A DNA stretch of 64,000 nucleotides from Candidatus Nealsonbacteria bacterium (GTDB lineage Bacteria > Patescibacteriota > Minisyncoccia > Minisyncoccales > MHMH01). Below are positions 6,538-64,000 of the stretch, piece after piece (position 1 is the first letter of the stretch; each line of letters begins with the position of its first letter). Below the pieces are notes generated by a model. The model made no database searches, was not told where the DNA came from, and saw nothing but the letters and a program-made list of their open reading frames with translations. The translations under genes were made by a program, and so were the position numbers. Where the stretch lies: the NCBI GenBank assembly GCA_016181965.1, contig JACOYH010000004.1:11761-75760 (forward strand). The letters run 5' to 3'.

Positions 6538-6541
6538 ATAC

Positions 6542-6628
6542 TGGTGCCCGGGGCGGGACTCGAACCCGCAAGTCATTGCTGACAAGAGATTTTAAGTCTC
6601 TCGTGTATACCAATTCCACCACCCGGGC
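6542..6628 (-). tRNA. tRNA-Leu (TAA), type II, CCA encoded
   Basis: Reverse complement folds: acceptor gcccggg/cccgggc, anticodon loop cttaaaa, long variable arm. Confidence 0.8.
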
Positions 6629-6640
6629 ATGATTTCTATG

Positions 6641-6712
6641 AGGCCTGGGTGGGAATTGAACCCACGTATAGCAGTTTTGCAAACTGCTGCCTTACCACTT
6701 GGCTACCAGGCC
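6641..6712 (-). tRNA. tRNA-Cys (GCA)
   Basis: Acceptor ggcctgg/ccaggcc, anticodon loop ttgcaaa. Confidence 0.8.
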
Positions 6713-23824: not shown

Positions 23825-23825
23825 T

Positions 23826-25268: not shown

Positions 25269-25269
25269 A

Positions 25270-27928: not shown

Positions 27929-27934
27929 ATTGTC

Positions 27935-43040: not shown

Positions 43041-43126
43041 CAGGGCCATAGTCATAACGCTTGTTTTTTTCTCTGTTTATCTGTATATCAAAATTAGCTC
43101 ACCAAAATTCAATAAAGGAGATAATC

Positions 43127-47429: not shown

Positions 47430-48632
47430 ATGCCCGAACCCGAGCAACAACCAAAAGACGAAAAACTTGAGTATTTAAAAAGAGATGAGATTAGAACTAT
47501 GGGCAAAGACGTTGGCGCCCTAAGGGAAGCAGAAGCGCAACGAGAAAGACAAAGGGTGGCAAAAATGCGCGTCGGGGAGGAAAGGAAACAGGAAAGCGCA
47601 AGGCAGGAGACCGCCGCTCAAGCTACTCAAGAGCGAAGCGAGGCCGCCAAAGCAGCCAGGCAAAAAGAAGAAGAGGTGGCAACGTTAAAAGAAGAATGGA
47701 CGGCCAGAGAAGAAGCGGCAAAAACAGAGGCCATAGAGAGGGCGCGGCAAAGAGAAGCGCGACTGGGCAAAGAAATGGAGAAAGTTCAAGGCCCGGAAGA
47801 ACAGGCCCGAAAGAGTTTTCTTGAAAGGGTAGAGGCAAAAGTAGAGGGTTTACCCGCCGAAGAGACAGCGCCCGAAAGGCCAAGAATTCCAGCCCCCGAA
47901 ATGCCTAAACCCACAACGCCTGCGCCGCCAAGACCACCAAAAATTCCGTCGCCTCCAGCTTTCGCAACTTTGCCTGTTGCCACAAAACCGACAGCCGCAG
48001 GACTACCTTGGACAAAAATTGCCATTTCTTTATCGGCTCTAGCGGTTTTAGGGGCTGTGGGAACTTTTTGGTACTGGTACTTTGTTGTCAAACCAGCGCC
48101 CGTTCAACCTCCTCCACCTCCATCAACCGAACAGCCAGAACAGCCGGTCAAGGAAGAGCCAATTATTTCAGCTCCGCAAATAACAGAAGCGCTGGTCGAG
48201 GCGGGCTATCGCGTACCAACGAGCCCCCGCACTATCACCACATTAATAATCCACAGTATTTATAATATTTTAGAGGGCGATTCATACAGCGTGAACGGGA
48301 TACTAGAAGAATACCGGCAATTAAACGTAGCCCACCACTACTTAATTGCCCGCGATGGCGCGGTTTACAGAGCGGTGGCAGAAGAGAATATCGCTTATCA
48401 CGCTGGCCCCAGTCGCAACGCCTCTTCAATAGGCATTGGTATTATTAATACAGGAACCGACACGCCTACTCAAGCCCAATATCAAGCGTTAGCGGGCTTA
48501 GTTAAACAACTTAAGGAAAAATACGCTATCTCCGACGAAAGTATTTTTCGGCGTCAGGACGTAATAGCCGACAGCCCCAACAACCCTGCCAATTTTGACT
48601 GGAATTATTTTAATTCGCTCATCGCTCCCTAA
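47430..48632 (+). CDS. Membrane-anchored N-acetylmuramoyl-L-alanine amidase (Amidase_2/PGRP domain) with charged coiled-coil N-terminus and Pro-rich linker
   Basis: Amidase_2 motifs HHYLIARDGAVY...IAYHAG...NFDW; central TM. Confidence 0.65.
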   Translation: MPEPEQQPKDEKLEYLKRDEIRTMGKDVGALREAEAQRERQRVAKMRVGEERKQESARQETAAQATQERSEAAKAARQKEEEVATLKEEWTAREEAAKTEAIERARQREARLGKEMEKVQGPEEQARKSFLERVEAKVEGLPAEETAPERPRIPAPEMPKPTTPAPPRPPKIPSPPAFATLPVATKPTAAGLPWTKIAISLSALAVLGAVGTFWYWYFVVKPAPVQPPPPPSTEQPEQPVKEEPIISAPQITEALVEAGYRVPTSPRTITTLIIHSIYNILEGDSYSVNGILEEYRQLNVAHHYLIARDGAVYRAVAEENIAYHAGPSRNASSIGIGIINTGTDTPTQAQYQALAGLVKQLKEKYAISDESIFRRQDVIADSPNNPANFDWNYFNSLIAP

Positions 48633-49420: not shown

Positions 49421-50521
49421 TTAGTATATATAGCCCTTAATTAACGGGTCGCCCATGCGCAGGGTTCGGTAGTTTGTCTTACCCCAGCCGATATAATTCA
49501 TTTCAGAGAAGATTATCTTATCTCCCTTGACCTGCTCAACATAGCCGACATGGCCGTAGATCTTGTCGCCCTCCAGTGATATGACTGCTCCCGCTTGGGG
49601 AATACAAAACCTGCCTACGCAAGTGGCATAACCATCCGCGGCCGCATTGGCTATCCAGTCGGTTGCGTTGCCCCACGATGGAATAGCTCTTTTTTGAGCA
49701 ACCCACCAGGTGCACTGCCCGTAAGGAAAATCGTGCGATTTACCGTAGAAATTATTAGTGGAAAGCCCCGAAGTAGCGCTTACTCCGGGCAAACTGACCG
49801 TGGAATACGAGGGCATTTGCCCACCCGGTATTATCAATATCTCTCCTTCGAAGATGTCGCCGTCTTCCTTTATATCGTTAAAAACGAGCAGGTCGGCAAC
49901 GTCTGCTTTATATTTTTTAGCCAAAGCGTCAGCTGTATCTCCCGCCTGCACTTGGTGCATAATGCCGGAAGCAGGTAAAATAAGCAGTTTTTGCCCGGGC
50001 TGAATAATGCCGCTGCCTATATTATTGGCCCAAATAACCGTATCAATAGAAACGCCGAAGTTCTGGGCAATGCCCCACAAACTGTCTCCATTTTTTACGG
50101 TGTATTCAACGATTTCTCTTCTCGTAACCTTATAGTCGGCTCCATCGCCTAAGGCCCCGAGCACTTGAGGGGTTACGGCCATTGGCGGCGATATGGCGGC
50201 CAAGCTATTACTTTCTATTATAGTCAGTTCTGGCGATTCTTTTATTTTTTCAAAGGGCACAAGAAAAGTCCCTTGCGTTTCAACAGGGGCTTGAGCTGAA
50301 AAAGCGTAATTGACTTGAGCGGTTGATGGGGCGGTAGTAGCTATCACAGCGAACAAAGCCACGGCAAGGAATCCCAAATAAAACAAAGGGTCGCGCTTGG
50401 ACCCCTTTAAGTACTCTTTAACCGCATTTAAGCCCTGTTCTAGAAAATAAATTTTGCTTGACCCTGTCAACTTTCTTAGTCCGCTAAGCATCCGCTGGGC
50501 CAAAACAGACAAACTTTCCAT
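49421..50521 (-). CDS. Membrane-anchored peptidoglycan hydrolase: two LysM domains plus CHAP domain
   Basis: LysM YTVKNGDSLWGIA... and HQVQAGDTADALA...; CHAP Cys (YGQCTWWV) and His (IYGHVGYV). Confidence 0.8.
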   Translation of the reverse strand: MESLSVLAQRMLSGLRKLTGSSKIYFLEQGLNAVKEYLKGSKRDPLFYLGFLAVALFAVIATTAPSTAQVNYAFSAQAPVETQGTFLVPFEKIKESPELTIIESNSLAAISPPMAVTPQVLGALGDGADYKVTRREIVEYTVKNGDSLWGIAQNFGVSIDTVIWANNIGSGIIQPGQKLLILPASGIMHQVQAGDTADALAKKYKADVADLLVFNDIKEDGDIFEGEILIIPGGQMPSYSTVSLPGVSATSGLSTNNFYGKSHDFPYGQCTWWVAQKRAIPSWGNATDWIANAAADGYATCVGRFCIPQAGAVISLEGDKIYGHVGYVEQVKGDKIIFSEMNYIGWGKTNYRTLRMGDPLIKGYIY

Positions 50522-50663: not shown

Positions 50664-51512
50664 ATGGATCTGACTTCAAAAAAGACCATCAAAGAACTAC
50701 TCGCAAGGCAAGGCGCTATGCCATCCAAGCGCTTGGGCCAAAATTTTTTAATTGATAAAGGCGCTGTCAGACAAATAATTGAAGCAGCCGATGTCGACAG
50801 CCAAGATACGGTTTTAGAGATTGGCCCGGGGCTTGGCGTGATTACTCAAGAACTTGCGAAAAAAGTAAAACAAGTTATTGCCGTGGAAAAAGACAAAAAG
50901 ATGGTTGATTTGCTGAAAGAAACATTAAAAGATTATAAGAATATTGAAATAATCACTGGCGATATTAGGGAATCGGATTTTCTAAAAAGGAAATCGGATT
51001 TCCTAAAATATAAAGTCGTCGGCAATCTCCCGTTTTACCTTACGGCTCCGGTTATCCGCCAATTCCTCGAGCTGGTTGACACCAGGTGTCAACCAGCTCA
51101 AATGACGTTGGTGGTCCAGAAAGAGGTAGGGCAGAGAATATGCCAAAAGCCGCCGCGGATGAACCTATTGGCCGTCTCGGTGCAAATTTACGCAGAACCG
51201 CAGATCATTGCTTATATTCCAAAAACATCTTTCTGGCCCCAACCAAAAGTGGACGCGGCCATTGTCAGCATCATCCCAACCTCAAGCCAAAACTTGCGGA
51301 CGACGGGCGTCCGCGAGTTCTTCAAAATAGTGAAAGCGGGGTTTTCCCAACCGAGGAAACAGCTGGTAAATAATTTTTCAGGACAGCTTAAAATAGATAA
51401 GAATAAAATCAGCGCCTGGCTACATCAAAACGACATTAATCCAAAACGCCGAGCCGAAACACTTACGATAGGCGACTGGATTAACTTGGCTAAAAGTTTT
51501 AGAATAGGATAA
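50664..51512 (+). CDS. rsmA: 16S rRNA (adenine1518/1519-N6)-dimethyltransferase
   Basis: LGQNFLID, SAM-binding VLEIGPGLG, N(L/I)PY motif. Confidence 0.9.
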   Translation: MDLTSKKTIKELLARQGAMPSKRLGQNFLIDKGAVRQIIEAADVDSQDTVLEIGPGLGVITQELAKKVKQVIAVEKDKKMVDLLKETLKDYKNIEIITGDIRESDFLKRKSDFLKYKVVGNLPFYLTAPVIRQFLELVDTRCQPAQMTLVVQKEVGQRICQKPPRMNLLAVSVQIYAEPQIIAYIPKTSFWPQPKVDAAIVSIIPTSSQNLRTTGVREFFKIVKAGFSQPRKQLVNNFSGQLKIDKNKISAWLHQNDINPKRRAETLTIGDWINLAKSFRIG

Positions 51513-52576
51513 TGAAAGGGTTTTTTCTTAACATCCTGCCGATATTGTTGATCTTTGGCGGTCTTTTATTAATGAGCTCTATCTTTGCGGAAGACCCCGG
51601 ACCCATTACTTGCGGCGAAGTGCCACCCGACCCGGGCGAGGACTACACCAATACATGGAACGAATACCGTTGCGAAAGCAACGCTTGCGGAGGAGACGCC
51701 CTAACCAGATCCGCTTCCCAGCATTTCTTTACGTATTATCAAAGAATATATGATGTTAATGGCTGTCAGATCGGCTGGGGAGGAGTAGAGAGCACATCAG
51801 GCGACAACCCGCCCATTGAATACGGTTCGCCATCTGTTTATCAACAGGCCAACCAGTATCAAAAATGCGCAGGAAGCACCGGTTGGCAAAGAACCGCTGT
51901 TTCCGTGCAGTGCCAAGGAGAGTGCTACCCAGCTCCCACCCCAAAGCCGTTAAACGCCATTCCCAAGGCGCCGTATAACGTCCCGGATGGGAGCGCCTAT
52001 AAACTGCCTATTAATTTTTCTTGGGAGGATCTTAACAGAGTTATAGCTCCCTCGTGCCAAGTAGCTAAATATCAATTTCAAATCCCGGGCGCTGGCGCGA
52101 TAGTCCCACCGCCGCCAATTATCCCTCCGCCGCCTCCTCCCGGGCCCCCGCCTCCGCCTCCACCTCCACCTTCACCGCCGCCTCCTACTGGCTGGTGTTC
52201 GGTACCCACATTGCGAACCTATTTCGGAACTAACGTTTCAAACGCATCGCGCATCTGCAACACCGAAAGCGGTGGCAATCCTAACGTTATCGCCTCCGAT
52301 GGACTTGGTGGTTATGACGTCGGACTCTTCCAAATTAATACTACCGCCCATCCAGGACTTACTGTAGATTATTTAAAAGTTCCGGAAAACAACATCAGAG
52401 AGGCCGTAAATATCAGCAACGGAGGGACTAATTGGGGCGCTTGGTCGGTGGCGTATACTTATACGTGTCTTTGGAACACATACATTCCTTTATTGGGAAT
52501 AATTCCGGGGTGCGTTCCGTGGCATCAATCGCAAGAGCCGGCGCCCGGGATTTATAATTGCCAGTGCAGGCCCTAA
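51512..52576 (+). CDS. Secreted Cys-rich protein with poly-Pro linker and C-terminal SLT-like lytic transglycosylase domain (VirB1-like)
   Basis: Signal peptide; PPPPIIPPPPPPGPPPPPPPPPSPPPP; catalytic-region pattern ESGGNPNVIASDGLGGYDVGLFQIN. Confidence 0.55.
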   Translation: MKGFFLNILPILLIFGGLLLMSSIFAEDPGPITCGEVPPDPGEDYTNTWNEYRCESNACGGDALTRSASQHFFTYYQRIYDVNGCQIGWGGVESTSGDNPPIEYGSPSVYQQANQYQKCAGSTGWQRTAVSVQCQGECYPAPTPKPLNAIPKAPYNVPDGSAYKLPINFSWEDLNRVIAPSCQVAKYQFQIPGAGAIVPPPPIIPPPPPPGPPPPPPPPPSPPPPTGWCSVPTLRTYFGTNVSNASRICNTESGGNPNVIASDGLGGYDVGLFQINTTAHPGLTVDYLKVPENNIREAVNISNGGTNWGAWSVAYTYTCLWNTYIPLLGIIPGCVPWHQSQEPAPGIYNCQCRP

Positions 52577-52580
52577 AATT

Positions 52581-54440
52581 ATGCGCTTTACCTATTACCC
52601 GATTTTAATATCTCTCACGATTGTTGGAACTTTTTTATCAATGGGGGCATCGGCCCAAAGCATTGTTGATTTGCCGGGCGACCAGCTGCAGCTCCAGACG
52701 ACGTCAACCCCCCAATACCTCTTTCGTTGCGCTCTCTCAACCGACAGGTCTTACCAGTGGCAAGTCCGCGCCTGCGCCGGCGACACCTGCAGCAGTTGGG
52801 CAACCGGTCAGCAATTCACGACTAGTCATGCTCCGGAGGTTGCCTCGCCTTATGATGCCGATTGGCAAAGTAAAGAAAAGATGAAAAACGCTGCTGCCGT
52901 CTTGGACTGGTGCCCTGCGGAAGGCGCGGTTTCTTATTTGCTCGAACTTTATCAAAAAACAGGCGCTGCTTTTAATAAAGTGGTTTTGCCGGAACGATTC
53001 ATAGCGCCCAACACCATATACGACGACGATCGCGGCTGGCAGGAAATAAAAAAAGCCACATCTTACGGCTGGCAAGTTACCGCCTGCCCGGGTATCAATA
53101 CGCCAAAAGAAGGGTGCGGGCCTTTTAGTCAGTTCTGGGAATTTGATACTGGAGTAAAGCTTAGGTTACCAACGAACCTTATTCCGCCAGACGGCTCGGT
53201 TGTCAACCTTTCCACTTCGCTTTCGTGGCTGGGCGACAGGTACGCGGCCGGCTATTTATTGCATATTCAAGGCACAGTTATTAATCAGGAAATTCCAGTA
53301 GTGAGATCTACGGATTTTCCTTTGAATAAAATATGGAAGGATTGGCTCGCCCTTGACGCTCCTTATAACTGGCGGGTCGCTTCTTGCGAGGGGAGCGCCA
53401 CAAGCACAACCGGGCTGGTTTGCGAAGAAGAGACAACCGGTCAGGTGCAATGGAGCGCGGTAAACTCTTTGCGCACGACCGGAGCTCCGCCAACGAATGT
53501 AAGGTTTGAGCCAACTAACGCGCAAGGCCAGATTGCTATTCCCCTAACTATTTCATGGGACGACATGCCCGGCGCCGCTTCTTACAGGATTGAAGTGCGC
53601 GGTGTAAAATACGCAGTCCTGCGCGAGCCCAAGTTAACGCTATATTTTGAACCGCCATTTTTACAGCAAGGCCAATCGTATATAGCCCTCATAAGAACCT
53701 GCGCCGATGAGGACGGACTGGTTTGCGGATTATCGACCGGCGCGTCGTTTACCGTGGCGCCTCTTGAGCCGCCCGCCATTACGGCAGAGAATTTATTTAT
53801 CCCATCTTTTGGAGTCAAAACAAACGAGGTCTTTGGCGCCAGCGCTTACCAATATCAACTGCGCTATGAATCAGCCAATCCGGAAGAAACAGACGCGTGC
53901 AAGGCCTCTGTGGGTTCGGTTACGGAAACAACAATTGTCGGCGGCGACGGACCCATCTCTGTGCGATGCGCCGGCCAATATTCTTTGCAAGGACGCGGCT
54001 GTATTGAAAATACCTGCGCGGAGCCGCTGGGCTGGGGCCAGTGGAGCGGCCCGCTCTCTCTGACAATTCAAGAACAACGAGGAGCAACCGGCCTTATCCC
54101 TTGCGGCAGGGGAGCAAATAATCCCTCCACGCCTTGGGATGAACGCGAAAGTTGCGGCGTCAAACACATCTTTTTATTAATTAAAATTATTCTTGATTTC
54201 CTGATGTTCCGGCTTGCCCCTCTTGCCTTAGCCGCGCTCGCCTTGTATAGCGGAGTCATTTTTTACTTTGCTTTGCCTATGGGCGTTACCACGCCGGTTG
54301 TAAAAGTTAAATCGCTCTGGAGGGCGGCAGGCATCGGCTTGCTGATAATATTTTTTGCTTGGCTTATAATCAACACTTTCTTGGGCTTTGTCGGTTTCAA
54401 TATCGGAGTGTTCGGCAACTGGTACGAAATTGGCTCTTGA
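52581..54440 (+). CDS. Large exported protein: about five repeated roughly 95-aa Y.W.V..C modules fused to a C-terminal T4SS pilin-like domain
   Basis: Signal peptide; repeats YQWQVRACAGDTC, YGWQVTACPG, YNWRVASCEG, YRIEVRG...IRTCADEDGLVCG, YQYQLRY; C-terminus LIPCGRG...C...two hydrophobic helices, homologous to ORF 43940. Confidence 0.5.
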   Translation: MRFTYYPILISLTIVGTFLSMGASAQSIVDLPGDQLQLQTTSTPQYLFRCALSTDRSYQWQVRACAGDTCSSWATGQQFTTSHAPEVASPYDADWQSKEKMKNAAAVLDWCPAEGAVSYLLELYQKTGAAFNKVVLPERFIAPNTIYDDDRGWQEIKKATSYGWQVTACPGINTPKEGCGPFSQFWEFDTGVKLRLPTNLIPPDGSVVNLSTSLSWLGDRYAAGYLLHIQGTVINQEIPVVRSTDFPLNKIWKDWLALDAPYNWRVASCEGSATSTTGLVCEEETTGQVQWSAVNSLRTTGAPPTNVRFEPTNAQGQIAIPLTISWDDMPGAASYRIEVRGVKYAVLREPKLTLYFEPPFLQQGQSYIALIRTCADEDGLVCGLSTGASFTVAPLEPPAITAENLFIPSFGVKTNEVFGASAYQYQLRYESANPEETDACKASVGSVTETTIVGGDGPISVRCAGQYSLQGRGCIENTCAEPLGWGQWSGPLSLTIQEQRGATGLIPCGRGANNPSTPWDERESCGVKHIFLLIKIILDFLMFRLAPLALAALALYSGVIFYFALPMGVTTPVVKVKSLWRAAGIGLLIIFFAWLIINTFLGFVGFNIGVFGNWYEIGS

Positions 54441-54493
54441 CAAGACAAAGTAAAAACGCTATACATCGTTAACCAAAAGCACGGGAGGGAGAG

Positions 54494-55117
54494 ATGCTTA
54501 AAAACTTAATATGGCCAGTAGGGGCCTTATTGCTGGTGGCGGGTATATTCGTTTACGCACTATCGTCAAACAAGGTGCCTCCGCCAAATCCAGCTGTAGC
54601 CGATGAGGTATTGCCGACAGCGACAGCAACAGCGACGGCAACGCCCGAAACAAAAACTAACTCTATTATCCCGATGGTGACCGTAACGCCGGTTCCGGCA
54701 AAAACCCGCGAGTATGTTTACAACGCAGTTGAATACTTAATTGCAAGTAGGTCACGTAGCTTTATCTGGCTTAAAATAATGCTTAAGGAGCGCGGATACA
54801 ATATACAGGACGAAGAAATTCAAAAATTTCGGGAACAGCACGGCGTAGACCCCGGCGACTCTATAGTAATAAGAGGAAAAATAGTCGGCAGATCAGATAT
54901 GGCAAACTACGCAGGAGTAAGAATTGAATCGCCGGAACATCTTCTATCCTGCATGGGTAGCCGCAGTAGTACTGTTGTCGGCGTCCTTCCCCAGTGGGCG
55001 TCTGACGCCTTACAATCGGTCAAGGCGGGCAAAGAGGTAGTCCTCACCTTGCGAGGCACGGCAACCAGTGAAAGTTACAAGATAACAGATTGCCAACCCG
55101 TGATCGATGGGAAATAA
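54494..55117 (+). CDS. Bitopic membrane protein in the T4SS-like cluster (VirB8-like topology; speculative)
   Basis: N-terminal TM followed by a roughly 180-aa exo-domain. Confidence 0.3.
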   Translation: MLKNLIWPVGALLLVAGIFVYALSSNKVPPPNPAVADEVLPTATATATATPETKTNSIIPMVTVTPVPAKTREYVYNAVEYLIASRSRSFIWLKIMLKERGYNIQDEEIQKFREQHGVDPGDSIVIRGKIVGRSDMANYAGVRIESPEHLLSCMGSRSSTVVGVLPQWASDALQSVKAGKEVVLTLRGTATSESYKITDCQPVIDGK

Positions 55118-55168
55118 CGCTTAAAGGCCCGGTTTTCAACAGCCGGGTCTTTTAATGTTGTTTTTATT

Positions 55169-57673
55169 TTGTGTTATAATAACCTAATGAATGAAGAATC
55201 GCGCCAGATAAAACAAAAACGCTATTGCAATAAAATGCCTCATTTATTTTTGTTGGCATTTTTTGTTTTTATTTTCATTGCTTGGCCGGTTTTTACTTTT
55301 GCAGCTCCGTGGGATTTTATCACGGGACCGTTCACGGCAGTTACCGATACCTTAAACGCCCTTAAAAATATAATTATAAATTTAGGTATAATAATATTGC
55401 TCCTTTTCACGGGTGTTCCCATACTTTTTGCCATGGCCGCCGCAATCGCCTACGGGGCAATGTTTTTACTTGCCGCGCTGGGCAGCGCAGTGTTCTTTCT
55501 TGTTGACCACATTATTGAGCAAACCCTTAGCGTCCCCGTAGTGCCCGGTCGGGGCATAACTATTATCACTGACGGATGGGCTTTATCGCGCGATATTGCC
55601 AGTATGTTCTTTATTGTTATTCTCGCCTTTATCGGTCTTGCCACGATTTTGGGCATGCAAACATATCAAGTTAAAAAATTATTGCCCGCTCTTTTATTAA
55701 TGGCGGTTCTTTTAAATTTCAGCGCTCTGCCGGTTGGTTTTATAGTGGATATGTCAAATCTGATGTCTATCGGCTTTATAAGGGCAATGAATATTGGTTT
55801 TGCTAATAATTTAGTAACAGACGCGCTTAATCAAACATTAAATGATTTAAAAACTAATATATTGGCTATCGGAAATAATATTACCAGCCAGAATGCCATA
55901 GAGTTTTTCTTTGGTACATTCCTCGAGCCGGTGCTCACAGCCGCAGCAAAAGCAGTTTTCTATTTCGCTTTCATATTAGCGCTTCTGGCGATTAGTTTTC
56001 TTTTTATTATTAGAATCGGCATACTTTGGATGTTATCAATCCTGGCGCCGCTTGCTTTTGCTTCTTATGTTTTACCGGCTACAAGAAAGTTCTGGAGCCA
56101 ATGGTGGCAAAATCTTCTACAATGGTCATTAATGGCTCTTCCTATGTCGTTCTTTCTCTATTTAGCATTTAAAATCAACAGTATACCAAGCGAGTTGAAT
56201 TTCTCTGGCGGCGGGTGGTTCGGTACCATTTTAGCCGGCTTTATTCAGCCGCTCTTGATTCTGCTTTTCCTTTTTGTTGGATTTGTTACCAGTATGACTT
56301 TCGTGCCCGGGGTGGCGCGGGGCATGGTAATGAAAGGGGGCAAGTTTATGACCGGCACGGTAGCTGTAGGCGCCGGCGCGCTTGCCGCTAAAAGATTGGC
56401 GCCGCTGGCTCAAAAATGGGGCGCGGGACTAAAAGGGCCGCAAAAAACGGAGGCCGAAATAGCAAAAATGGGCCGCGTAGAAAAATTCGGCTGGGGCGTT
56501 CGCCAGAGATATGGCGCCCCATTAGAAATGGCTGGTCGGGAAGCCGCCAGCAGAATCGAAAGAAAAGAAACCGCTGACGTGGAAAAACAAAAAGAACAGT
56601 TCAAGAAAATGGGCGCGGGAGAAATTCTCAACCGTTTTAAGACGAGCGTCAAACCTTCTTCGCGAGCCGCGGCCTTATGGGCATTATCAGAAAGAGACCC
56701 CGCTAAATTTGCTGAATACATAAAAGGCAACCAAATCAAAGGAGCAGATGTGACCAAAGCCGGGGCGCTTCTTGGCAAAAGAGGGCATTTGATGTTTGGC
56801 GCCAATAATTATACAGACGCCTTAGCCGCGGCTATGTACCCAACAGAATGGCAAGCCGCGCAGGCTTTAATCAAGCAAGGCAAGACAAGAAGAGGTAACG
56901 CAAAGCTTAAAGAAATTGCACGAAGATTTGCCGGCGCGGTTAAAGATCCAACCCAAATGTCGGCAAGCGCGTTTAAGAGCTCGGCTTTTATGGGAGCCGC
57001 GGTTGATACGTGGAGCGGCGATAAAATCGGCCGGGCGGCCACGCATTTTGGCAGAGAAGTGGCGGACGCATTTCAAAAGGAGATTGATAAAAAAGGCAAG
57101 GATATTTTCAAAGATAATGGCCGCTTGGCTCTTTGGCTTACCGGCGGAGCCGCCACCAACGCCGGACTTCATTTACCACCGGAAATTAAAGACATGACCC
57201 AAAAAGAGGTTAAAAATGAAATGATCAAGGCCAGAATAAGCTCGGAAAAAAGAATGGATAAGCAAACTGCTCTTTTACAGCAAATCTTCAAAAACAATCC
57301 TCAACTGCTTATGAGGGACTACCACCGCCCCGGAACCACCGAGGAAATGAAAAAGGCCATTGCCGGCGCTATCCAAAACCTTGGCCGCACCCTCCCCACC
57401 AAAGAAGAGGTGAACTCCCGGATTGGCAAAACAGAACAAACCATCATCAAAAGAACGCAGGATGAAGTAAGAGCTATTCAAGACCGCAACCGCCACGAAG
57501 AGACATATCAGAAAGCAGGCGGTCTGCCGACTGGACCAGCATTTCAGACGTGGCAAGCGGGGCAACGAGATGTCGCCGAAAGATTAGACAAGATTCGTGG
57601 CGATATTAAGAAAGCCGAACAAAGCCAAGCCGGCTCTTTGGCAAGATTATGGGAAAAGAGAAAGGGCAGCTAA
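55169..57673 (+). CDS. Polytopic membrane protein with long C-terminal hydrophilic domain (VirB6/TrbL-like)
   Basis: More than 8 TM segments over about 400 aa, then a roughly 430-aa Lys/Ala-rich soluble domain; cluster context. Confidence 0.5.
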   Translation: MCYNNLMNEESRQIKQKRYCNKMPHLFLLAFFVFIFIAWPVFTFAAPWDFITGPFTAVTDTLNALKNIIINLGIIILLLFTGVPILFAMAAAIAYGAMFLLAALGSAVFFLVDHIIEQTLSVPVVPGRGITIITDGWALSRDIASMFFIVILAFIGLATILGMQTYQVKKLLPALLLMAVLLNFSALPVGFIVDMSNLMSIGFIRAMNIGFANNLVTDALNQTLNDLKTNILAIGNNITSQNAIEFFFGTFLEPVLTAAAKAVFYFAFILALLAISFLFIIRIGILWMLSILAPLAFASYVLPATRKFWSQWWQNLLQWSLMALPMSFFLYLAFKINSIPSELNFSGGGWFGTILAGFIQPLLILLFLFVGFVTSMTFVPGVARGMVMKGGKFMTGTVAVGAGALAAKRLAPLAQKWGAGLKGPQKTEAEIAKMGRVEKFGWGVRQRYGAPLEMAGREAASRIERKETADVEKQKEQFKKMGAGEILNRFKTSVKPSSRAAALWALSERDPAKFAEYIKGNQIKGADVTKAGALLGKRGHLMFGANNYTDALAAAMYPTEWQAAQALIKQGKTRRGNAKLKEIARRFAGAVKDPTQMSASAFKSSAFMGAAVDTWSGDKIGRAATHFGREVADAFQKEIDKKGKDIFKDNGRLALWLTGGAATNAGLHLPPEIKDMTQKEVKNEMIKARISSEKRMDKQTALLQQIFKNNPQLLMRDYHRPGTTEEMKKAIAGAIQNLGRTLPTKEEVNSRIGKTEQTIIKRTQDEVRAIQDRNRHEETYQKAGGLPTGPAFQTWQAGQRDVAERLDKIRGDIKKAEQSQAGSLARLWEKRKGS

Positions 57674-57704
57674 TATTTCAGCTGCCCCCTAGGGGAGAAT
57701 GTGC

Positions 57705-57998
57705 TTAAACGATCGCCGAGACCCCATCTACGGTCTCAATGGCCTGCTCCCGATTAACATCTTCGGCTTGTAGCGCAGCGGCGACGCGATGTCGCGCCTC
57801 CGACGCAGAAGTGCATGTCTCGATGATCTTTATATATCGAGTGGCTCTCTTCTCAGACGCCCTGATATACTGATCACCGGATGCGGCCTCTTGCGCCAGC
57901 TTCCTTGCTTCCTTTTCGAGCTGACGCAATTCTTTCTCGCGCGCTTCATCTCTCGCCTTCAACGAGTTCGGATCGACCTTCCTAAAGAGCCCAAACAT
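57705..57998 (-). CDS. GC-rich small coiled-coil protein, antisense orientation inside the T4SS-like cluster
   Basis: About 60 percent GC; perfect TTGACA-N16-TATAAT promoter and AAGGAGG RBS in 58000-58064 (minus strand). Confidence 0.5.
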   Translation of the reverse strand: MFGLFRKVDPNSLKARDEAREKELRQLEKEARKLAQEAASGDQYIRASEKRATRYIKIIETCTSASEARHRVAAALQAEDVNREQAIETVDGVSAIV

Positions 57999-58064
57999 CC
58001 TATTCCTCCTTGATATTATTTACTACCTATATTATACACAATTTAATTAATTTGTCAATCCCTT

Positions 58065-58469
58065 ATGCCTATAAATATTACCCCGGAACAATATAAAGAA
58101 CTATTCAATAAACTGCCTAAAGAAACACAGGATTTAGCGCTTTCCGAAAAAACGGCTATGAGCGTGTTTGACTCCTGCATAGCTAACGATGTGGATGTTG
58201 ATAAAATTTCGGAAGTTGGCAGATATGCCGACTATGTTCTGGTCGGCGCGATAAAGGAAGACGATTTGGCTGATGCTTTGGAAAGAGAGGTTGGCTTGGA
58301 AAAAGAATCAGCCAAAAAAATAGCCGAGGATATTGCGGCAGATGTTTTCAGTAAAATAGGGGAGAAGCCAACTGCGGCGGCTGTGTCTATGCCAAGCGAA
58401 GACGAAATTGACGAAGAGATGGAAGAAAAACCTCGCCGCAAAGACACCTACCGCGAGACCGTCGAGTAA
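58065..58469 (+). CDS. Hypothetical acidic protein (T4SS-like cluster)
   Basis: ORF only. Confidence 0.4.
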   Translation: MPINITPEQYKELFNKLPKETQDLALSEKTAMSVFDSCIANDVDVDKISEVGRYADYVLVGAIKEDDLADALEREVGLEKESAKKIAEDIAADVFSKIGEKPTAAAVSMPSEDEIDEEMEEKPRRKDTYRETVE

Positions 58470-58475
58470 AAAGTT

Positions 58476-58844
58476 ATGTCTGACACAGCCACGCCAAACG
58501 CATTTTCGCCCGACTTTCTGCTTTTTGCCTTTCCGCTGGCCGCTTTTTTAGATGTTTTCGGTTTTATTTCCATATTCATCAGTTTTGGCATTTTGGGGTT
58601 TATTGTCAGTTTACTTCTGGGCATTCCGCTTGTTATTTGGATGGTGACAAAAGAAAACGACATAGCGGCCGCAAAAGAGCGTGTCAGGGAGTTGCGGAAA
58701 CCCGGGGCTGGCGCCACAAAAGCGGAAGGAAAGGTGGCGAAAAAAGTGTTGGGCAAGGGCCTGCGCAAACTTATTTTAGGAAGCGTTTTGGTCTTTTTCC
58801 CTTATTGGACTTGGTCGGCATTGTCCGTATTAAGAAAGGGATGA
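58476..58844 (+). CDS. Small membrane protein (T4SS-like cluster)
   Basis: 2-3 TM segments. Confidence 0.4.
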   Translation: MSDTATPNAFSPDFLLFAFPLAAFLDVFGFISIFISFGILGFIVSLLLGIPLVIWMVTKENDIAAAKERVRELRKPGAGATKAEGKVAKKVLGKGLRKLILGSVLVFFPYWTWSALSVLRKG

Positions 58845-58858
58845 TATAATAATTCAAT

Positions 58859-59239
58859 ATGAAAACAAAACAAATATTTTTCTTTATATTGATACTCGCG
58901 CTTGTGGCGCCTCAAACTGTTTTCGGGATTGCTTTGAACTTACAATATCCTGTCCCCCCCGGAGCGCCAAACATCAACGATGGCAACCAGCAAACGTTCG
59001 GAGACTTTGCTCTCTATATATACAACTTTATCGTCTGGATCTCCGGTCTCGCCGCCTTTGTGATGATTATCTGGAATGGCTTTTTGTGGCTCACCTCGGC
59101 CGGCAACCCGGGGCAAATCAGGCAAGCCACCGAGGGGTTGAGAAACGCCGCCCTGGGTTTGCTTGTTGTTTTGGCGTCATTTATTATTCTCCAAACAATC
59201 AATCCGCAGTTTATCGCGCCAAGATTGCCCACTTTTTAG
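58859..59239 (+). CDS. T4SS pilin-like protein (VirB2/TrbC-like)
   Basis: Signal peptide, two hydrophobic helices separated by a SAGNPGQ turn; similar to ORF 43940. Confidence 0.5.
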   Translation: MKTKQIFFFILILALVAPQTVFGIALNLQYPVPPGAPNINDGNQQTFGDFALYIYNFIVWISGLAAFVMIIWNGFLWLTSAGNPGQIRQATEGLRNAALGLLVVLASFIILQTINPQFIAPRLPTF

Positions 59240-59251
59240 GCAAGACATTTT

Positions 59252-59659
59252 ATGGATCAGTTTACCGTTCCACAATTCATCGAGCACAAGGCAAAAATTG
59301 TCGGGCCGCTGACTTTCCAGCAGTTTATTTTTGTCGGCATTGCCGTGGCCATTTCTTTTTTTCTTTATTTCGCCGTTCCTTTAATGTTTTTTGTGGCCGG
59401 CTCACTGGTTCTTGTGGGGACAGCGCTGGGCTTGGCCTTTGGCAGCGCCGGGGGCAGGTCGTTGCCTTTAGTGCTGAAAAATTTTTCCGCCTTTTTTTTC
59501 GCCCCAAAGCTCTATCTTTGGAAAAAGAAAGTCGGGCCGCCGCCAAAATTAATAAAAGAAGCCGCGCCCGTGCCAACCGCAGTTAGGGAAACGCCCGTGC
59601 CGACTATCGTGGGTAAAAGCCATCTTAAGAATTTATCAACCCGCATAGAAACAAAATAA
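59252..59659 (+). CDS. VirB3-like small membrane protein (2 TM) immediately upstream of virB4
   Basis: Topology and position; 2-nt gap to the next ORF. Confidence 0.4.
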   Translation: MDQFTVPQFIEHKAKIVGPLTFQQFIFVGIAVAISFFLYFAVPLMFFVAGSLVLVGTALGLAFGSAGGRSLPLVLKNFSAFFFAPKLYLWKKKVGPPPKLIKEAAPVPTAVRETPVPTIVGKSHLKNLSTRIETK

Positions 59660-59660
59660 A

Positions 59661-60290
59661 ATGCCAAGCACGCAGGACTTTTTAGAAATAGATCAAATCA
59701 GAGAGGGGATAGTTATTCTTAAAAACAAGGCGCTAAGAGGAGTAATGATGGTCTCCTCTATTAATTTTGCCTTGAAATCAGAGGAGGAGCAGTCGGCTAT
59801 TATTGCGCAGTTCCAGGGCTTTTTGAATTCTCTGGATTTTTCCGTGCAAATTGTCGTCCAGTCAAGGCGCCTTAATATCACCGGCTATTTGGATAAATTA
59901 GAGCAATTGGCAAACAGGCAAACCAACGAGCTATTAAAAGTCCAGGTACAGGGATACCATAAATTTATAAGCGAATTAGTGTCAGCTGGCACTATTATGT
60001 CTAAAACGTTTTTTGTAGTTGTTCCCTTTACTCTCTTTGAGTCGGGAGCTACAGCCGCCCAATTAATAAAAGGAAAGGGCACTCCCATTTTGACCGAGGA
60101 ACGTTTTCAAATGATAAAAAGCCAATTATGGCAAAGAATGGAGTTTGTCGCAATCGGCTTAAGAAGGTGCAGCTTACAGGCAGTACCGCTGACCACTCCG
60201 GAGCTAATCGAACTATTTTGGTCGTTGCACCATCCAAAACAAGCCGAAGTCGGCTATTACCCGGAAGTCCCTCCGGAATTGTCAAAATAA
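59661..60290 (+). CDS. virB4: VirB4-family ATPase, N-terminal domain (ORF 1 of a split gene)
   Basis: EGIVILKNKALRGVMMVSSINFALKSEEEQ pattern typical of Gram-positive-type VirB4 (TrsE/PrgJ/Orf16) N-termini. Confidence 0.55.
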   Translation: MPSTQDFLEIDQIREGIVILKNKALRGVMMVSSINFALKSEEEQSAIIAQFQGFLNSLDFSVQIVVQSRRLNITGYLDKLEQLANRQTNELLKVQVQGYHKFISELVSAGTIMSKTFFVVVPFTLFESGATAAQLIKGKGTPILTEERFQMIKSQLWQRMEFVAIGLRRCSLQAVPLTTPELIELFWSLHHPKQAEVGYYPEVPPELSK

Positions 60291-60291
60291 T

Positions 60292-62094
60292 ATGCAGCTG
60301 CCTTTTTTCAAAAAACAAAAAAAGAGAGAGCCGATTCCTGAAAAGCTCTTTGAATCCGAGCCGATTAGGGCCGTAGATATTGTGGCGCCGTCTTCCATTG
60401 AAGTTAAAACAGCTCATCTTAGGCTGGGGGAACGCATTGTGCAGTCGTTTTTCATTTTCTCCTATCCGAGGTATCTAAGCACCGCTTGGCTTTCTCCGGT
60501 GATTAATTTAGATATCCCGATGGATATGTCTCTTTTTATTCATCCCGTTGACGCCGGAATGATTTTGGGGCAATTGCGCAGGCGGGTCACCGAAGTCCAG
60601 GCCGAATTAATGGAACGAGAAGAGAAAGGGCTCGTCAGAGACCCTGCTCTGGAAATAGCTTTTCGCGACATTGAAGAATTAAGAGACCGCCTGCAAACCG
60701 CCCAGGAAAGAATGTTTAGATTCGGCTTGTATTTGTCGGTTTACGCCGGCACGGAAAAAGAGCTTAGCGAAATTGAAACAACCCTTCGCTCGATGCTGGA
60801 GTCCAAACTTATCTATATAAAGCCGGCTCTTTACCAGCAGAAAGAGGGCTTTGTTTCGACTTCTCCGTATTGCCTCGACCAATTAGAAGTCCACGCCTCA
60901 ATGAACACCGCCCCGTTATCCAGCATTTTCCCTTTTGTCTCGTTTGACTTGAGCTCTAACGAAGGCATTCTTTACGGCGTCAACCAGCACAATAATTCTC
61001 TGGTGCTTTTCGACAGGTTCTCTTTGGAAAACGCCAATATGACTGTCTTTGGCACGGCTGGTTCGGGTAAATCATACGCCTTAAAGCTGGAAATATTGCG
61101 CTATTTAATGCTGGGGGTTGATATTATTGTCCTCGACCCGGAAAACGAATATCGGGCCTTGGCTGAAGCGGCCGGAGGATCTTTTTTTAGCATGTCTTTG
61201 AGCAGTCCCCATCACATCAATCCTTTTAGTTTGCCCATACCAAGGGAAGACGAAAACCCCGCGGATGTTTTGAGGTCAAATATTATTAATCTGGTGGGGT
61301 TGATGAGAATTATGCTGGGCGGATTAAATCCCGAAGAAGACGCTATTATGGACAGGGCCCTTACAGAAACCTATGCGGCCAAAGACATTACCCCCGAGTC
61401 CGACTTTTCAACAGCGGAGCCGCCTATAATGTCCGACCTTGAACAGGTTTTAAACACAATGGAGGGCGCGGAATCGCTTGTCAGGCGGGTCCAAAAATTT
61501 ACCAAGGGCACTTACGCGAGCTTCTTCAACCAGCCCTCTAATGTGAATATGGAAAATAATTTAGTGGTATTCGGCATCAGAGATATGGAAGACGGTTTAA
61601 GGCCAATGGCAATGTATATTATTACAAGATTTATTTGGAATAAAGTGAGATCGGTGCTCAAAAAAAGGATTTTTGTGGTGGACGAGGCCTGGTGGCTCAC
61701 CCAAACAGAAGACGGCGCCTCCTTTTTATACGGCATTGTCAAACGCGGCAGAAAATACTGGCTGGGCGTTACTACTATTACTCAAGACATCAACGACTTT
61801 ATGAAATCCGACTACGGCAAGCCGATTATCACTAATTCCGCCCTGCGGCTTTTGATGAAACAAAGCACAGCCACCGTTGACACCGTTAAAAAAACGTTCA
61901 ATTTGAGCGACTGGGAAAAAGAGCTGCTTATCGGCGCCTCGGTGGGGGAGGGAATCTTTTTCGCCGGAGAAAAACACGTGGCCGTCAGGGTTATGGCTTC
62001 TTACTCCGAAGATCAATTTGTTACCACAGCCCCCGAAGAGGTGGTAAAAATACGAGAAGCCAAAAAGCGGATTAAGGCAGAAAAAGGCGCCTAA
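60292..62094 (+). CDS. virB4: VirB4-family ATPase, central and C-terminal ATPase domain (ORF 2 of a split gene)
   Basis: FSYPRYLSTAWL motif, Walker A GTAGSGKSYALK, Walker B VVDEAWWL. Confidence 0.7.
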   Translation: MQLPFFKKQKKREPIPEKLFESEPIRAVDIVAPSSIEVKTAHLRLGERIVQSFFIFSYPRYLSTAWLSPVINLDIPMDMSLFIHPVDAGMILGQLRRRVTEVQAELMEREEKGLVRDPALEIAFRDIEELRDRLQTAQERMFRFGLYLSVYAGTEKELSEIETTLRSMLESKLIYIKPALYQQKEGFVSTSPYCLDQLEVHASMNTAPLSSIFPFVSFDLSSNEGILYGVNQHNNSLVLFDRFSLENANMTVFGTAGSGKSYALKLEILRYLMLGVDIIVLDPENEYRALAEAAGGSFFSMSLSSPHHINPFSLPIPREDENPADVLRSNIINLVGLMRIMLGGLNPEEDAIMDRALTETYAAKDITPESDFSTAEPPIMSDLEQVLNTMEGAESLVRRVQKFTKGTYASFFNQPSNVNMENNLVVFGIRDMEDGLRPMAMYIITRFIWNKVRSVLKKRIFVVDEAWWLTQTEDGASFLYGIVKRGRKYWLGVTTITQDINDFMKSDYGKPIITNSALRLLMKQSTATVDTVKKTFNLSDWEKELLIGASVGEGIFFAGEKHVAVRVMASYSEDQFVTTAPEEVVKIREAKKRIKAEKGA

Positions 62095-62098: not shown

Positions 62099-62560
62099 TT
62101 AGGCCTGTCTGATAATAATGCGTCTTTGGGCGCCCTCGCCCAAACTTTCGCCGATAATATCGCTTCTTTCTGCCAGCGCCATATGAACTATTCTCCTTTC
62201 GTATGCCGACATGGGCATGAGTTCTTTTTCTTTTTTAGTTAGGACAACATCGTCGGCAGCCAATCGAGCCATCTCCTTCAGATATTCGGCTTTTTTTTGT
62301 TTGTAGTCGTTGATGTCCATATCAACGAAAAACGTCTCTTGAGCTCCCAGTTGTTTTCTTATCATTAATTTAATTAGATTTTGCACTTCAAATAGCGTCT
62401 GCCCGCGTTCCCCGATTAAAAGCTGGGCATCTTCGGTCTTAACTTTAACCGGTATTATTGAATCGCTTAAGTCCTTAACTTCAACTTCAACCGGCAACCC
62501 GGTTTTCTTAAAGAATGCATCTATTATTTCTTTAATTTTGGGCAAATCAGCTGCGTTCAT
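62099..62560 (-). CDS. jag: Jag/SpoIIIJ-associated protein (KH + R3H RNA-binding)
   Basis: R3H-like ERRIVHMAL motif; downstream of yidC. Confidence 0.75.
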   Translation of the reverse strand: MNAADLPKIKEIIDAFFKKTGLPVEVEVKDLSDSIIPVKVKTEDAQLLIGERGQTLFEVQNLIKLMIRKQLGAQETFFVDMDINDYKQKKAEYLKEMARLAADDVVLTKKEKELMPMSAYERRIVHMALAERSDIIGESLGEGAQRRIIIRQA

Positions 62561-63269
62561 TTTTTTTTAGAATAATATATTGCTGGCCGATTGTAAAGAC
62601 AGTTGTCGTTAGCCAGTAAAGAGCGATAGCGGCAGGCATGCGCCAAAGGATAAATATGGTAAAAATAGGGAAGAGATAAAGCATCTGCTTCTGCATTATG
62701 CTCGAAAAATCCGAAGAAGGCCTGCCAGCCGAAGCTTTAGCGGAGGCGGGGGTTAGCATTTTAGTTTGGAAGAATTGGGCGACTCCGGTAACGACAGCCA
62801 ATATCACAGAGGCCTCGGCTAAATCAATTAGCCCCAAGAAAGACGTATTGACTTGACCGGGATTTGGAATAAAACTGTATAAAAAAGAGAACTGCTCCGG
62901 CCCAAAGCCATTCCAAAAAAGACGAAAAAGCGCAATTAAAATAGGCAACTGCACCAGAAGAGGCAAGAGACCGGAGAGCGGGTTAACCTTTTCCTGTTTG
63001 TACAGCTCCATAAGAGCCATGCTTTGCTTGTGCTTGTCATCTTTATGTTTATTCTGGACCTCCTTAATCTTTGGCTGGAGCTCTTGAAGAGCTTTCTGCG
63101 ACCTTATGCCCTTTGAAGCCAACGGATAAAGAAACAACTTTATAAGAATGGTGAATAAAATTACCGCCACTCCAAAGTCGCGCCCGGGTATGTATAAATA
63201 CAGCAAAACCAAAGCATTAAAGAGCGGCTGGTATAAGATTGTGTTGAAAGCGCTGATAAAAAAATTCAT
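62547..63269 (-). CDS. yidC: Membrane protein insertase YidC/Oxa1 (short form)
   Basis: 5 TM core; position rnpA-yidC-jag. Confidence 0.85.
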   Translation of the reverse strand: MNFFISAFNTILYQPLFNALVLLYLYIPGRDFGVAVILFTILIKLFLYPLASKGIRSQKALQELQPKIKEVQNKHKDDKHKQSMALMELYKQEKVNPLSGLLPLLVQLPILIALFRLFWNGFGPEQFSFLYSFIPNPGQVNTSFLGLIDLAEASVILAVVTGVAQFFQTKMLTPASAKASAGRPSSDFSSIMQKQMLYLFPIFTIFILWRMPAAIALYWLTTTVFTIGQQYIILKKNERS

Positions 63270-63598
63270 AATTTTATTAACCCCGAAGTCATTAATAATT
63301 TTTTAATTGCCGCTTCTGTCGCTTGATAGTCCTTGCTGCCGGCCCCGGCAAGAGCGGTAATAACCACATCAAACCCCGGCGAAACGGCGGACAGACGAGC
63401 CCTAATAATTTCTCTCACCCTTCTTTTGATTCTGTTCCTTTGGCTTGCCTTCTTCGAGACCTTCAAACCGGCCACAAACGCAAATCGACTCACTTTTAGG
63501 TTATTACTAGCCGCTTTCAGGAGAAAGCTGTCCTCTTTAAAACCTCGCCCTACCTTAAAAACCCTCTCAATGTCTTTTGTTTTCTTAAGAGAGGTCAT
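63266..63598 (-). CDS. rnpA: Ribonuclease P protein component
   Basis: RNRIKRRVREI RNR motif. Confidence 0.85.
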   Translation of the reverse strand: MTSLKKTKDIERVFKVGRGFKEDSFLLKAASNNLKVSRFAFVAGLKVSKKASQRNRIKRRVREIIRARLSAVSPGFDVVITALAGAGSKDYQATEAAIKKLLMTSGLIKL

Positions 63599-63729
63599 AC
63601 CGTCAGGCGGGCCCTCTGTTTGCTTCTGCGTTTGGCTAAAACCTTCCTGCCTCCCTTTTTCCCTTGACGGGATAAAAAGCCATGCGTCCTCTTTCTTTTT
63701 CTTTTTTTGGGATTCCAGGTAACGCTCAT
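63595..63729 (-). CDS. rpmH: 50S ribosomal protein L34 (unlisted short ORF)
   Basis: Own translation MSVTWNPKKRKRKRTHGFLSRQGKKGGRKVLAKRRSKQRARLTV; ATGA overlap with the rnpA start. Confidence 0.85.
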   Translation of the reverse strand: MSVTWNPKKRKRKRTHGFLSRQGKKGGRKVLAKRRSKQRARLTV

Positions 63730-63886: not shown

Positions 63887-64000
63887 ATGAGCAAGGATGA
63901 ACTATGGCAAGCCCTGCTTGCCCAAATACAGTTTAATATATCCAAGGCCAATTTTGCCACTTGGTTCAAAAACACCGGGATCCTCCAAAAAAAAGGTCCT
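63887..64000 (+). CDS. dnaA: Chromosomal replication initiator DnaA, N-terminus (runs off the window)
   Basis: MSKDELWQALLAQIQFNISKANFATWFKNT, the canonical DnaA domain I start. Confidence 0.8.
   Translation, partial: MSKDELWQALLAQIQFNISKANFATWFKNTGILQKKGP

Follow-up and report, generated by a model that had tools for sequence, protein, structure and literature searches.

A cluster of eleven open reading frames (ORFs) in an ultrasmall genome labelled Candidatus Nealsonbacteria in GenBank holds true type IV secretion system (T4SS) genes. The stretch of DNA analysed has a length of 64 kb and is termed the window. The cluster lies at window positions 51512–62094. Ten of its ORFs are read from the plus strand and one from the minus strand; most of the encoded proteins are annotated as hypothetical in GenBank. 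The ORFs are labelled O1–O11, and their coordinates are exactly those of an initial annotation of the region, which was made from the raw sequence. The features of the cluster are as follows, with positions in nucleotides (nt) and chain lengths in amino acids (aa).

51512..52576, plus strand: O1, putative secreted VirB1-like wall hydrolase (SLT_3 and SLT matches, motifs)
52581..54440, plus strand: O2, 619 aa, signal peptide, Cys-containing Ig-like repeats and a predicted C-terminal two-helix VirB2-like pilin module (from nt 54090)
54494..55117, plus strand: O3, N-terminal membrane anchor, T/A/P-rich linker and predicted OB-fold domain
55123..55152, plus strand: terminator-like hairpin with a 12-bp stem, after O3
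55169..57673, plus strand: O4, extended VirB6/TrbL-like polytopic membrane protein, 834 aa (family-level evidence)
57661..57690, no strand assigned: hairpin with a 13-bp stem, between the convergent stops of O4 and O5
57705..57998, minus strand: O5, 97-aa charged helical ORF with promoter, ribosome-binding site and terminator
58065..58469, plus strand: O6, conserved acidic cytoplasmic protein (six-helix bundle, disordered linker, C-terminal motif)
58476..58844, plus strand: O7, small basic membrane protein with 2–3 transmembrane segments (hydropathy)
58859..59239, plus strand: O8, free VirB2/TrbC-like pilin, signal peptide and two transmembrane helices (PF18895)
59252..59659, plus strand: O9, PrgI/VirB3-like membrane protein (PF12666)
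59661..60290, plus strand: O10, TrsD-like, corresponding to a detached VirB4 N-terminal domain (profile matches)
60292..62094, plus strand: O11, VirB4 ATPase of the monoderm type without its own N-terminal domain (NF045971, P-loop_TraG and PDB matches)

The initial annotation had described the region as a co-directional run of T4SS-like genes next to the replication origin, with envelope parts of Gram-positive (monoderm) character. It named a VirB1-like protein, VirB2/TrbC-like pilins, a VirB3-like protein, a VirB4 ATPase and a VirB6/TrbL-like polytopic protein with a soluble tail of about 430 aa. This first reading was accurate, and all of its family assignments are borne out by profile searches. 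It needs amendment at two points. The run is not wholly co-directional, as it is interrupted by O5, a minus-strand ORF that has a promoter and a terminator of its own. In addition O10, which was among several ORFs considered unassignable, is TrsD-like and equivalent to the VirB4 N-terminal domain.

Direct scans against Pfam and NCBIfam (E-values up to 0.1) gave no match for O2, O4, O6 or O7, and for O3 and O5 only marginal matches (E = 0.0085–0.098, far below curated cut-offs). Homologous loci were used for comparison. A VirB4 scan, with one genome taken per species, yielded 65 loci (L001–L065) with 50–86% VirB4 identity. Nearly all of these are labelled Patescibacteria or Candidate Phyla Radiation; a few carry no title beyond “bacterium”, and a single match, of 58 residues, is assigned to Stahlbacteria. 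ORF starts in the related loci are longest-ORF calls, and some N-terminal coordinates are possibly inflated.

O11 has the strongest assignment. It matches NF045971, the CD1110 conjugative ATPase family, at model positions 179–732 (E = 8e-106, 355 bits against a curated cut-off of 325) and P-loop_TraG with E = 3e-25. The closest solved structure is the C-terminal domain of the Thermoanaerobacter VirB4 (PDB 4ag5, E = 2.7e-37), followed by TrwK of R388 (E = 3e-5). The motif noted initially, FSYPRYLSTAWL, is at residues 56–67, the Walker A sequence GTAGSGKS at 254–261, and the Walker B region VVDEAW at 462–467. The best VirB4 models for O11 represent Firmicutes/Mollicutes families of integrative and conjugative elements (ICEs), in agreement with a monoderm-type system.

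O10 aligns with the N-terminal parts of VirB4 models, i.e. with positions 104–233 of NF045975 (E = 1.8e-8) and positions 3–102 of NF045971. It also matches TrsD (NF041427) with E = 1e-4, below the NCBIfam cut-off, and a precomputed independent annotation assigns it to PF26593, “TraC-like”. VirB4 is thus divided between two polypeptides here. A TrsD ORF of 190–245 aa is separate in 55 related loci (59 when truncated copies are included), and in most loci the TrsD stop is between −4 and +39 nt from the longest VirB4 ORF, with a maximum of 225 nt. A PDB search with the TrsD family profile gave no match; the link of O10 to the VirB4 N-terminal domain is therefore drawn from hidden Markov model (HMM) matches only.

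O9, immediately upstream, matches PrgI (PF12666) with E = 4.5e-6, 27.5 bits against a cut-off of 27. It is named “PrgI family protein” in GenBank and is the membrane anchor for VirB4.

The assignment of O4 comes from its family. In an alignment of O4 with 33 homologues, each from a related locus, 9 of the 34 members match Pfam TrbL (best E-value 1.4e-6). The top PDB match of the family profile is TrwI, the VirB6 of R388 (E = 4.2e-4). The true start of O4 is probably Met7 (nt 55187). The last hydrophobic segment ends near residue 383–400, and the remaining 434 aa are basic, with an isoelectric point of 10.1. This tail is probably cytoplasmic.

Two of the ORFs display VirB2-like sequences. O8 is a short pilin that matches T4SS_pilin (PF18895) with E = 2e-11 and the Mycoplasma ICE Mbov_0395 pilin-like family with E = 1.4e-6. 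O7, next to it, has homologues beside pilin genes in four of the 65 loci (L037, L056, L020 and L031) and on two metagenomic contigs, L067 and L068; it travels with the short pilin gene. O2 is a predicted Ig-repeat adhesin that ends in a VirB2-like module, i.e. an adhesin-pilin fusion of the kind the initial annotation proposed, because 4 of 11 family members match T4SS_pilin through the C-terminal two-helix module (best E-value 0.0011) and 7 of 11 match the Ig-like domain Ig_Rha78A_N. A BLASTP comparison of the O2 C-terminus with the O8 pilin gave E = 0.011, which is not significant alone.

Fusions of this type are common in relatives of the window locus. There are 78 pilin-domain ORFs in 41 related loci, and free short pilins account for only four of them. 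The pilin module is N-terminal to extensions of 234–1749 aa in 55 of the 78 ORFs, C-terminal in 12, and internal in seven. Large extracellular surface domains are thus carried by most pilin modules of this lineage. Fusion ORFs near virB4 are often arrayed in groups of 2–3 after virB4, and some have a chain length of 1440–1750 aa.

O1 consists of a signal/transmembrane segment, a Cys-rich N-domain (residues ~30–197), a polyproline linker and a lysozyme-like domain. The linker, recognized in the initial annotation, spans 27 residues (199–225, nt 52106–52186). The SLT_3 domain is at residues 242–312 (nt 52235–52447; E = 2e-12, 47.8 bits against a cut-off of 27), and a match to Pfam SLT is just under its cut-off (E = 3.6e-4, 20.5 bits against 21.3). 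The domain carries the motif T-E-S-G, with Glu252 as the putative catalytic residue, and the N-terminal hydrophobic segment provides a secretion signal. By its domain, its Glu residue, its signal and its location in the cluster, O1 is a predicted VirB1-like lytic transglycosylase of the SLT superfamily.

The N-domain of O1 has a different relationship. It is homologous to the first ~200 aa of unsplit adhesin-pilin proteins in L009, L015, L006 and L056. Residues 1–191 of O1 and residues 17–617 of O2, taken together, are collinear with a single 801-aa protein of L009, and the situation is similar in L006, L015, L056 and L067. The adhesin-pilin gene therefore appears to have been split in the window genome by a polyproline-SLT_3 module plus a new signal peptide. 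The 65 related loci have no convincing counterpart of the SLT_3 domain (one marginal match, E = 0.0029). GC content is 51.8% at window positions 52000–54000 compared with ~45% in the whole window, and this coincides with the Cys/Gly/Pro-rich O1 and O2 genes.

O6 has no Pfam family but is widespread, with at least 395 sequence clusters, and is present in 37 related loci. At its extreme C-terminus, after the disordered linker, is an invariant motif, D-x-Y-R-E-x-x-E. Fold and PDB searches with O6 were uninformative. O6 is a core partner of the T4SS.

O3, in contrast to O6, belongs to a rare family: among 1.84 billion proteins it has 10 representatives, and their genes always stand between those for the adhesin-pilin and for VirB6 (L066–L071). 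For both O3 and O6, single-sequence word-indexed searches for homologues gave almost nothing, and profile or full HMMER searches were needed. The best structural matches of O3 are nucleic-acid-binding OB folds, and the top match is of the BOF type; the OB-fold call comes from a 10-sequence alignment with moderate scores. The topology of O3 suits a VirB8, and it was considered as one; this was rejected, since the predicted fold is of the OB type and not NTF2-like. On this model O3 would be a rare accessory protein rather than a VirB8-like one. No VirB8 family match was found with Pfam or NCBIfam, and O3 was the sole candidate with the right topology (O7 was left out of the modelling).

O5 is antisense to the cluster and diverges from the O6–VirB4 unit. 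It is preceded by a perfect sigma-70 consensus promoter, TTGACA-16-TATAAT with a TG extension (58058–58031), and a ribosome-binding site, AGGAGG, and is followed by a 13-bp hairpin terminator. No homologue was found in the 65 loci or in L067/L068. Gene calls on independent Logan contigs also include O5. It is confined to this genome and is a candidate local regulator. The 13-bp-stem hairpin at 57661..57690 is probably a bidirectional terminator. Consensus scans suggest three forward transcription units, O1–O3, O4 and O6–O11; promoters and terminators were called solely by their agreement with consensus sequences.

The cluster is bordered by the following genes.

50664..51512, plus strand: ksgA/rsmA, 16S rRNA dimethyltransferase (Pfam RrnaAD, E = 5.5e-56), conserved upstream edge of the cluster
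62099..63729, minus strand: jag (KH-R3H), yidC, rnpA and rpmH (Pfam matches and the rpmH ORF), conserved downstream edge
63595..63729, minus strand: rpmH (ORF), last gene of this block
63887..64000, plus strand: start of dnaA, cut by the end of the window (its N-terminus aligns with DnaA ORFs of relatives)

The positions of rpmH and dnaA show that the closeness of the cluster to the replication origin, as first described, is real. In 19 related loci a ksgA homologue precedes the T4SS genes, and the downstream block jag-yidC-rnpA-rpmH is kept in 44–47. The features of a mobile-element boundary (an integrase, a tRNA or att site, a variable location) were looked for, and what is found instead is housekeeping genes that are the same across species. 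There is no tRNA or integrase at the cluster borders, the nearest tRNA being at 44.4 kb, and an Rfam scan of 50–64 kb shows no RNA family. An ICE was considered and rejected, as the cluster is without boundaries and at a fixed chromosomal location.

The gene order is shared with the relatives. BLAST of the ORFs in the 65 loci shows a recurrent order: ksgA, pilin-domain proteins, VirB6-like, O6, PrgI, TrsD and VirB4; further pilin-domain proteins follow in some cases, and the order ends with jag, yidC and rnpA. VirB4 is found in 61 of the 65 loci, TrsD in 59, PrgI in 56, the pilin domain in 38, O6 in 37 and the VirB6-like protein in 33. The same order around virB4 in most of the 65 loci is far beyond chance. 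L067 and L068 match the window gene for gene: LysM-CHAP, ksgA, adhesin-pilin, O3, VirB6, O6, O7, pilin, PrgI, TrsD and VirB4.

In agreement with the initial annotation, no VirD4, relaxase or VirB11 was found among 37 window ORFs scanned with Pfam, a set that includes every ORF of at least 230 aa. The scanned ORFs outside the cluster are housekeeping genes and a separate type IV pilus operon. The related loci give the same picture: none of the 65 has a Walker-A ORF resembling a type IV coupling protein (T4CP) within 10 kb of virB4. The unassigned Walker-A ORFs of at least 400 aa in that interval are 42 DnaA, two Mg-chelatase/ComM-like and one PilB only. The 42 form a cluster of ORFs of ~450 aa, identified as DnaA from the L001 member (Bac_DnaA, E = 1e-70) and from DnaA motifs in 10 members. 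The lack of a relaxase and of a coupling protein argues against conjugation.

Several other genes of the window deserve mention. Two peptidoglycan hydrolases are encoded just upstream of ksgA, an Amidase_2 protein (47430–48632, plus strand) and a LysM-LysM-CHAP protein (49421–50521, minus strand). In at least 10 related loci, too, the LysM-CHAP gene stands beside ksgA and the T4SS. In monoderm VirB1 analogues, SLT and CHAP domains are often combined. A ComFC-like phosphoribosyltransferase-domain protein (43061–43777, plus strand) and PNPase (45313–47415, plus strand) are encoded a few kb upstream of the T4SS. The window has 19 tRNA genes in total, none adjoining the cluster, and eight of them are packed around a pseudouridine synthase at 3969–6712. 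The type IV pilus operon, recorded in the initial annotation as separate from the T4SS, is real; it is at 21690–29692 on the minus strand and encodes PilM, two N-methyl pseudopilins, PilC and PilB. Neither PilT nor a prepilin peptidase was identified in this stretch, and five ORFs neighbouring the pilus genes (480, 192, 184, 175 aa) have no Pfam match.

Taken together, it is very probable that the cluster is a chromosomal, vertically inherited T4SS of the Patescibacteria type, which descended from monoderm conjugation machinery and is no longer a conjugation machine. This reading is adopted because of the family assignments, the synteny conserved in 65 loci, the lack of a linked T4CP or relaxase, the lack of tRNA or integrase borders, and the existence of published systems that match.

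On the model of R388 and F, VirB4/TrsD would be docked through VirB3 onto the VirB6 platform, where it would pull pilin modules out of the membrane and stack them into a pilus-like fibre. This fibre would cross the cell wall at a site opened by the hydrolase, and the adhesin-pilin fusion would put host-binding domains on or beside it. Work on Saccharibacteria suggests that the apparatus may serve host-cell contact and the exchange of macromolecules. A host-contact fibre or conduit is ranked as the putative core function, with import and effector export as sub-hypotheses. Uptake from the host or delivery of effectors is considered more likely than export of DNA.

Some observations weigh against the proposal of a Patescibacteria-type T4SS that has left conjugation. 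The VirB6 call for O4 derives from family-level evidence, with no direct match for the window protein, and a VirB8-like protein was not found, O3 having the right topology but a predicted OB fold. The large domains fused to most pilin modules may be a misfit to a canonical pilus lattice. Pilus formation, direction of transport and cargo are predicted features for every member of the class. A coupling ATPase could lie elsewhere in the genome, beyond the 64 kb window, and many unlinked VirD4 homologues exist in Patescibacteria (Quinonero-Coronel et al. 2025, PMC12102498).

The first of the two sub-hypotheses, possible but on balance doubtful, is that the machine imports host nucleic acids or other macromolecules, like the ComB system of H. 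pylori or the archaeal Ced system, and feeds an organism that is unable to make nucleotides. The composition of the cluster (VirB2, VirB3, VirB4 and VirB6 without a T4CP) resembles that of ComB. The basic 434-aa tail of the VirB6-like protein is in keeping with import, as is the position of the PNPase and ComFC-like genes a few kb upstream. O3, which would be anchored on the outside, may point the same way by its resemblance to nucleic-acid-binding OB folds; however, a rare accessory protein with 10 representatives cannot be the core of the mechanism, and OB folds of the BOF type are not proven nucleic-acid binders. Import has been proposed for Patescibacteria in two publications (PMC12102498 and PMC11665869). 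In addition, host RNA as food and a VirB4 that is monophyletic in the phylum are reported in a preprint (10.64898/2026.06.21.733656), which links PNPase and VirB4 to RNA feeding. On the other hand the CedB model gives 54 bits where the cut-off is 700, and a type IV pilus/competence route exists separately in the organism.

Export of effector proteins into or onto the host cell, the second sub-hypothesis, is unlikely. The cargo could include the O1 hydrolase, whose target would be the wall of the host, or O6, recognized by its C-terminal motif. O6 is soluble, acidic and widespread (at least 395 clusters), and its DxYRExxE end after a disordered linker has a layout typical of secretion or docking signals, but a role in assembly is just as conceivable, with O6 staying in the cytoplasm and docking on VirB4 or VirB6. 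O1 joins a distal adhesin domain to a lysozyme-like domain by a polyproline rod. Protein export or another non-DNA role was favoured by Wang et al. (2023, PMC10633639). A T4CP is normally needed for effector translocation, however, and none is linked; nor are recognizable candidate effectors present in the cluster.

A more far-reaching proposal combines several of these features. The VirB2-like hairpin would be mostly an anchor or loading module of large surface proteins. The split adhesin domain with its polyproline rod and lysozyme-like domain would be a hydrolase aimed at the host wall and not a housekeeping VirB1, and these, together with O3, the VirB6 tail and O6, would make up a coupling-protein-free uptake route for host nucleic acids. 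As a whole this is improbable.

It is very improbable that the cluster still functions in conjugation, with a relaxase, an oriT and a coupling protein located at other places in the genome. VirB4 is nearest to ICE and plasmid conjugation ATPases, and unlinked VirD4 homologues are common in Patescibacteria (PMC12102498). The same survey, however, found relaxases in only 103 of 3,035 genomes, and in S. epibionticum, a Saccharibacterium, the T4CP homologue is non-essential while the T4SS is essential. Dozens of species share the fixed chromosomal place beside dnaA, and neither an integrase nor a tRNA marks a boundary; this too is against conjugation.

The remaining proposal, that the genes make up a phage tail, a phage packaging module or a competence module instead of a T4SS, has a negligible probability and is refuted by the Pfam, NCBIfam and VirB4 profile matches. 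O10 does match phrog_2666, “terminase large subunit” (E = 2.5e-9), and O4 matches two PHROGs of unknown function, but these matches are marginal: the first spans only the first 89 of 555 profile positions, the same region as the VirB4 N-terminal-domain matches, and no capsid, tail or portal families were found in the PHROG scan. Five independent T4SS families are matched above or near curated cut-offs, and the competence/type IV pilus genes form a separate operon.

Four known systems will be compared with the cluster. H. pylori ComB and crenarchaeal Ced share with it a VirB4-centred machine without a coupling protein or relaxase. The similarity to Ced at the sequence level is low, as in addition to the CedB score given above the CedD model yields 22 bits against a cut-off of 600. 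Scans of the cluster ORFs with Pfam and NCBIfam gave no match to CedA or to ComB7–10.

A second comparison is with the inner-membrane complex of R388 Trw and Agrobacterium VirB (PDB 7o3v, 7o41). Here the proteins that align are TrwI, with the VirB6 family profile, and TrwK, with VirB4. The window cluster differs in that it is without VirB5 or VirB7–11, has VirB4 in two proteins and a VirB6 with a 434-aa tail, and belongs to a single-membrane envelope. Mace and colleagues are said to have described in 2022 that VirB2, VirB3, VirB4 and VirB6 form the pilus-assembly platform of the R388 system.

The MPF_FATA conjugation systems of Firmicutes/Tenericutes are closer. They include TrsC-TrsD-TrsE of pGO1/pSK41, PrgH-PrgI-PrgJ of pCF10, CD1110 of CTn2, and Mbov_0395/0397 of the Mycoplasma ICE. 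Shared features are a VirB4 above the CD1110 family cut-off, a PrgI-type VirB3, the lack of an outer-membrane core, a separate TrsD-like protein upstream of VirB4 (as in the staphylococcal plasmid pGO1) and, with the Mycoplasma ICE, a pilin that matches the ICE pilin-like family. In contrast to these systems the window has no relaxase, T4CP, VirB8-like protein or PrgB-type adhesin; it has VirB2-like pilins and is not on a mobile element.

The closest similarity is to the T4SS of the Patescibacteria themselves. Wang et al. (2023) described an unusual T4SS in the Saccharibacterium Southlakia epibionticum (SEML1_0006–0019), which resembles Gram-positive systems and has pilins but no recognizable coupling protein or relaxase. 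The cluster and its pilins are essential for epibiotic growth on the host. Quinonero-Coronel et al. (2025) surveyed 3,035 Patescibacteria genomes and found VirB4 in 2,417, as a monophyletic clade nested in MPF_FATA. TrsD, PrgI/VirB3, VirB6 and VirB2-like pilins are widespread in the phylum, VirB8 is almost undetectable, and VirB1 is linked to VirB4 mainly in Paceibacteria. These authors also note that the cluster is often beside dnaA, dnaN, rnpA, ksgA and rpmH. A 2025 review places the Patescibacteria systems in a new branch of the T4SS superfamily, while a 2024 perspective (PMC11665869) calls their role “completely unknown”. The preprint cited above describes tubular structures, which may be T4SS pili, where a parasite meets its host.

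The window cluster shares with this clade VirB4, TrsD, PrgI/VirB3, VirB6 and VirB2-like pilins, a cluster-linked VirB1-like hydrolase as noted for Paceibacteria, the lack of a linked relaxase or T4CP and of a recognizable VirB8, and the chromosomal place near dnaA, rnpA, rpmH and ksgA. It differs in several respects. The adhesin-pilin gene is split by the polyproline-SLT_3 insertion; the adhesin and VirB6 genes have between them a gene for a rare OB-fold protein; VirB6 is followed by an inserted antisense gene of 97 aa; and there is one free pilin, compared with an array of six pilins in S. epibionticum. The pilin fusions are not discussed in the survey (PMC12102498), which states that no adhesins were detected.

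The cluster is thus of a kind already described, and the initial annotation is a correct rediscovery of the published Patescibacteria T4SS. Few machines are known on which the epibiotic life of this very large, mostly uncultivated group depends, and such systems are among them. The present locus is a clean, fully syntenic example of the Paceibacteria type and does not represent a new kind of system. Its local details (the split adhesin-pilin, the OB-fold protein, the acidic DxYRExxE protein, the antisense gene and the pilin fusions) look new but minor, and are leads rather than discoveries. The leads that can be tested are O6 with its invariant C-terminal motif, the common fusions of pilins with surface domains, and the gene fission that joined an adhesin tip domain to a wall hydrolase.

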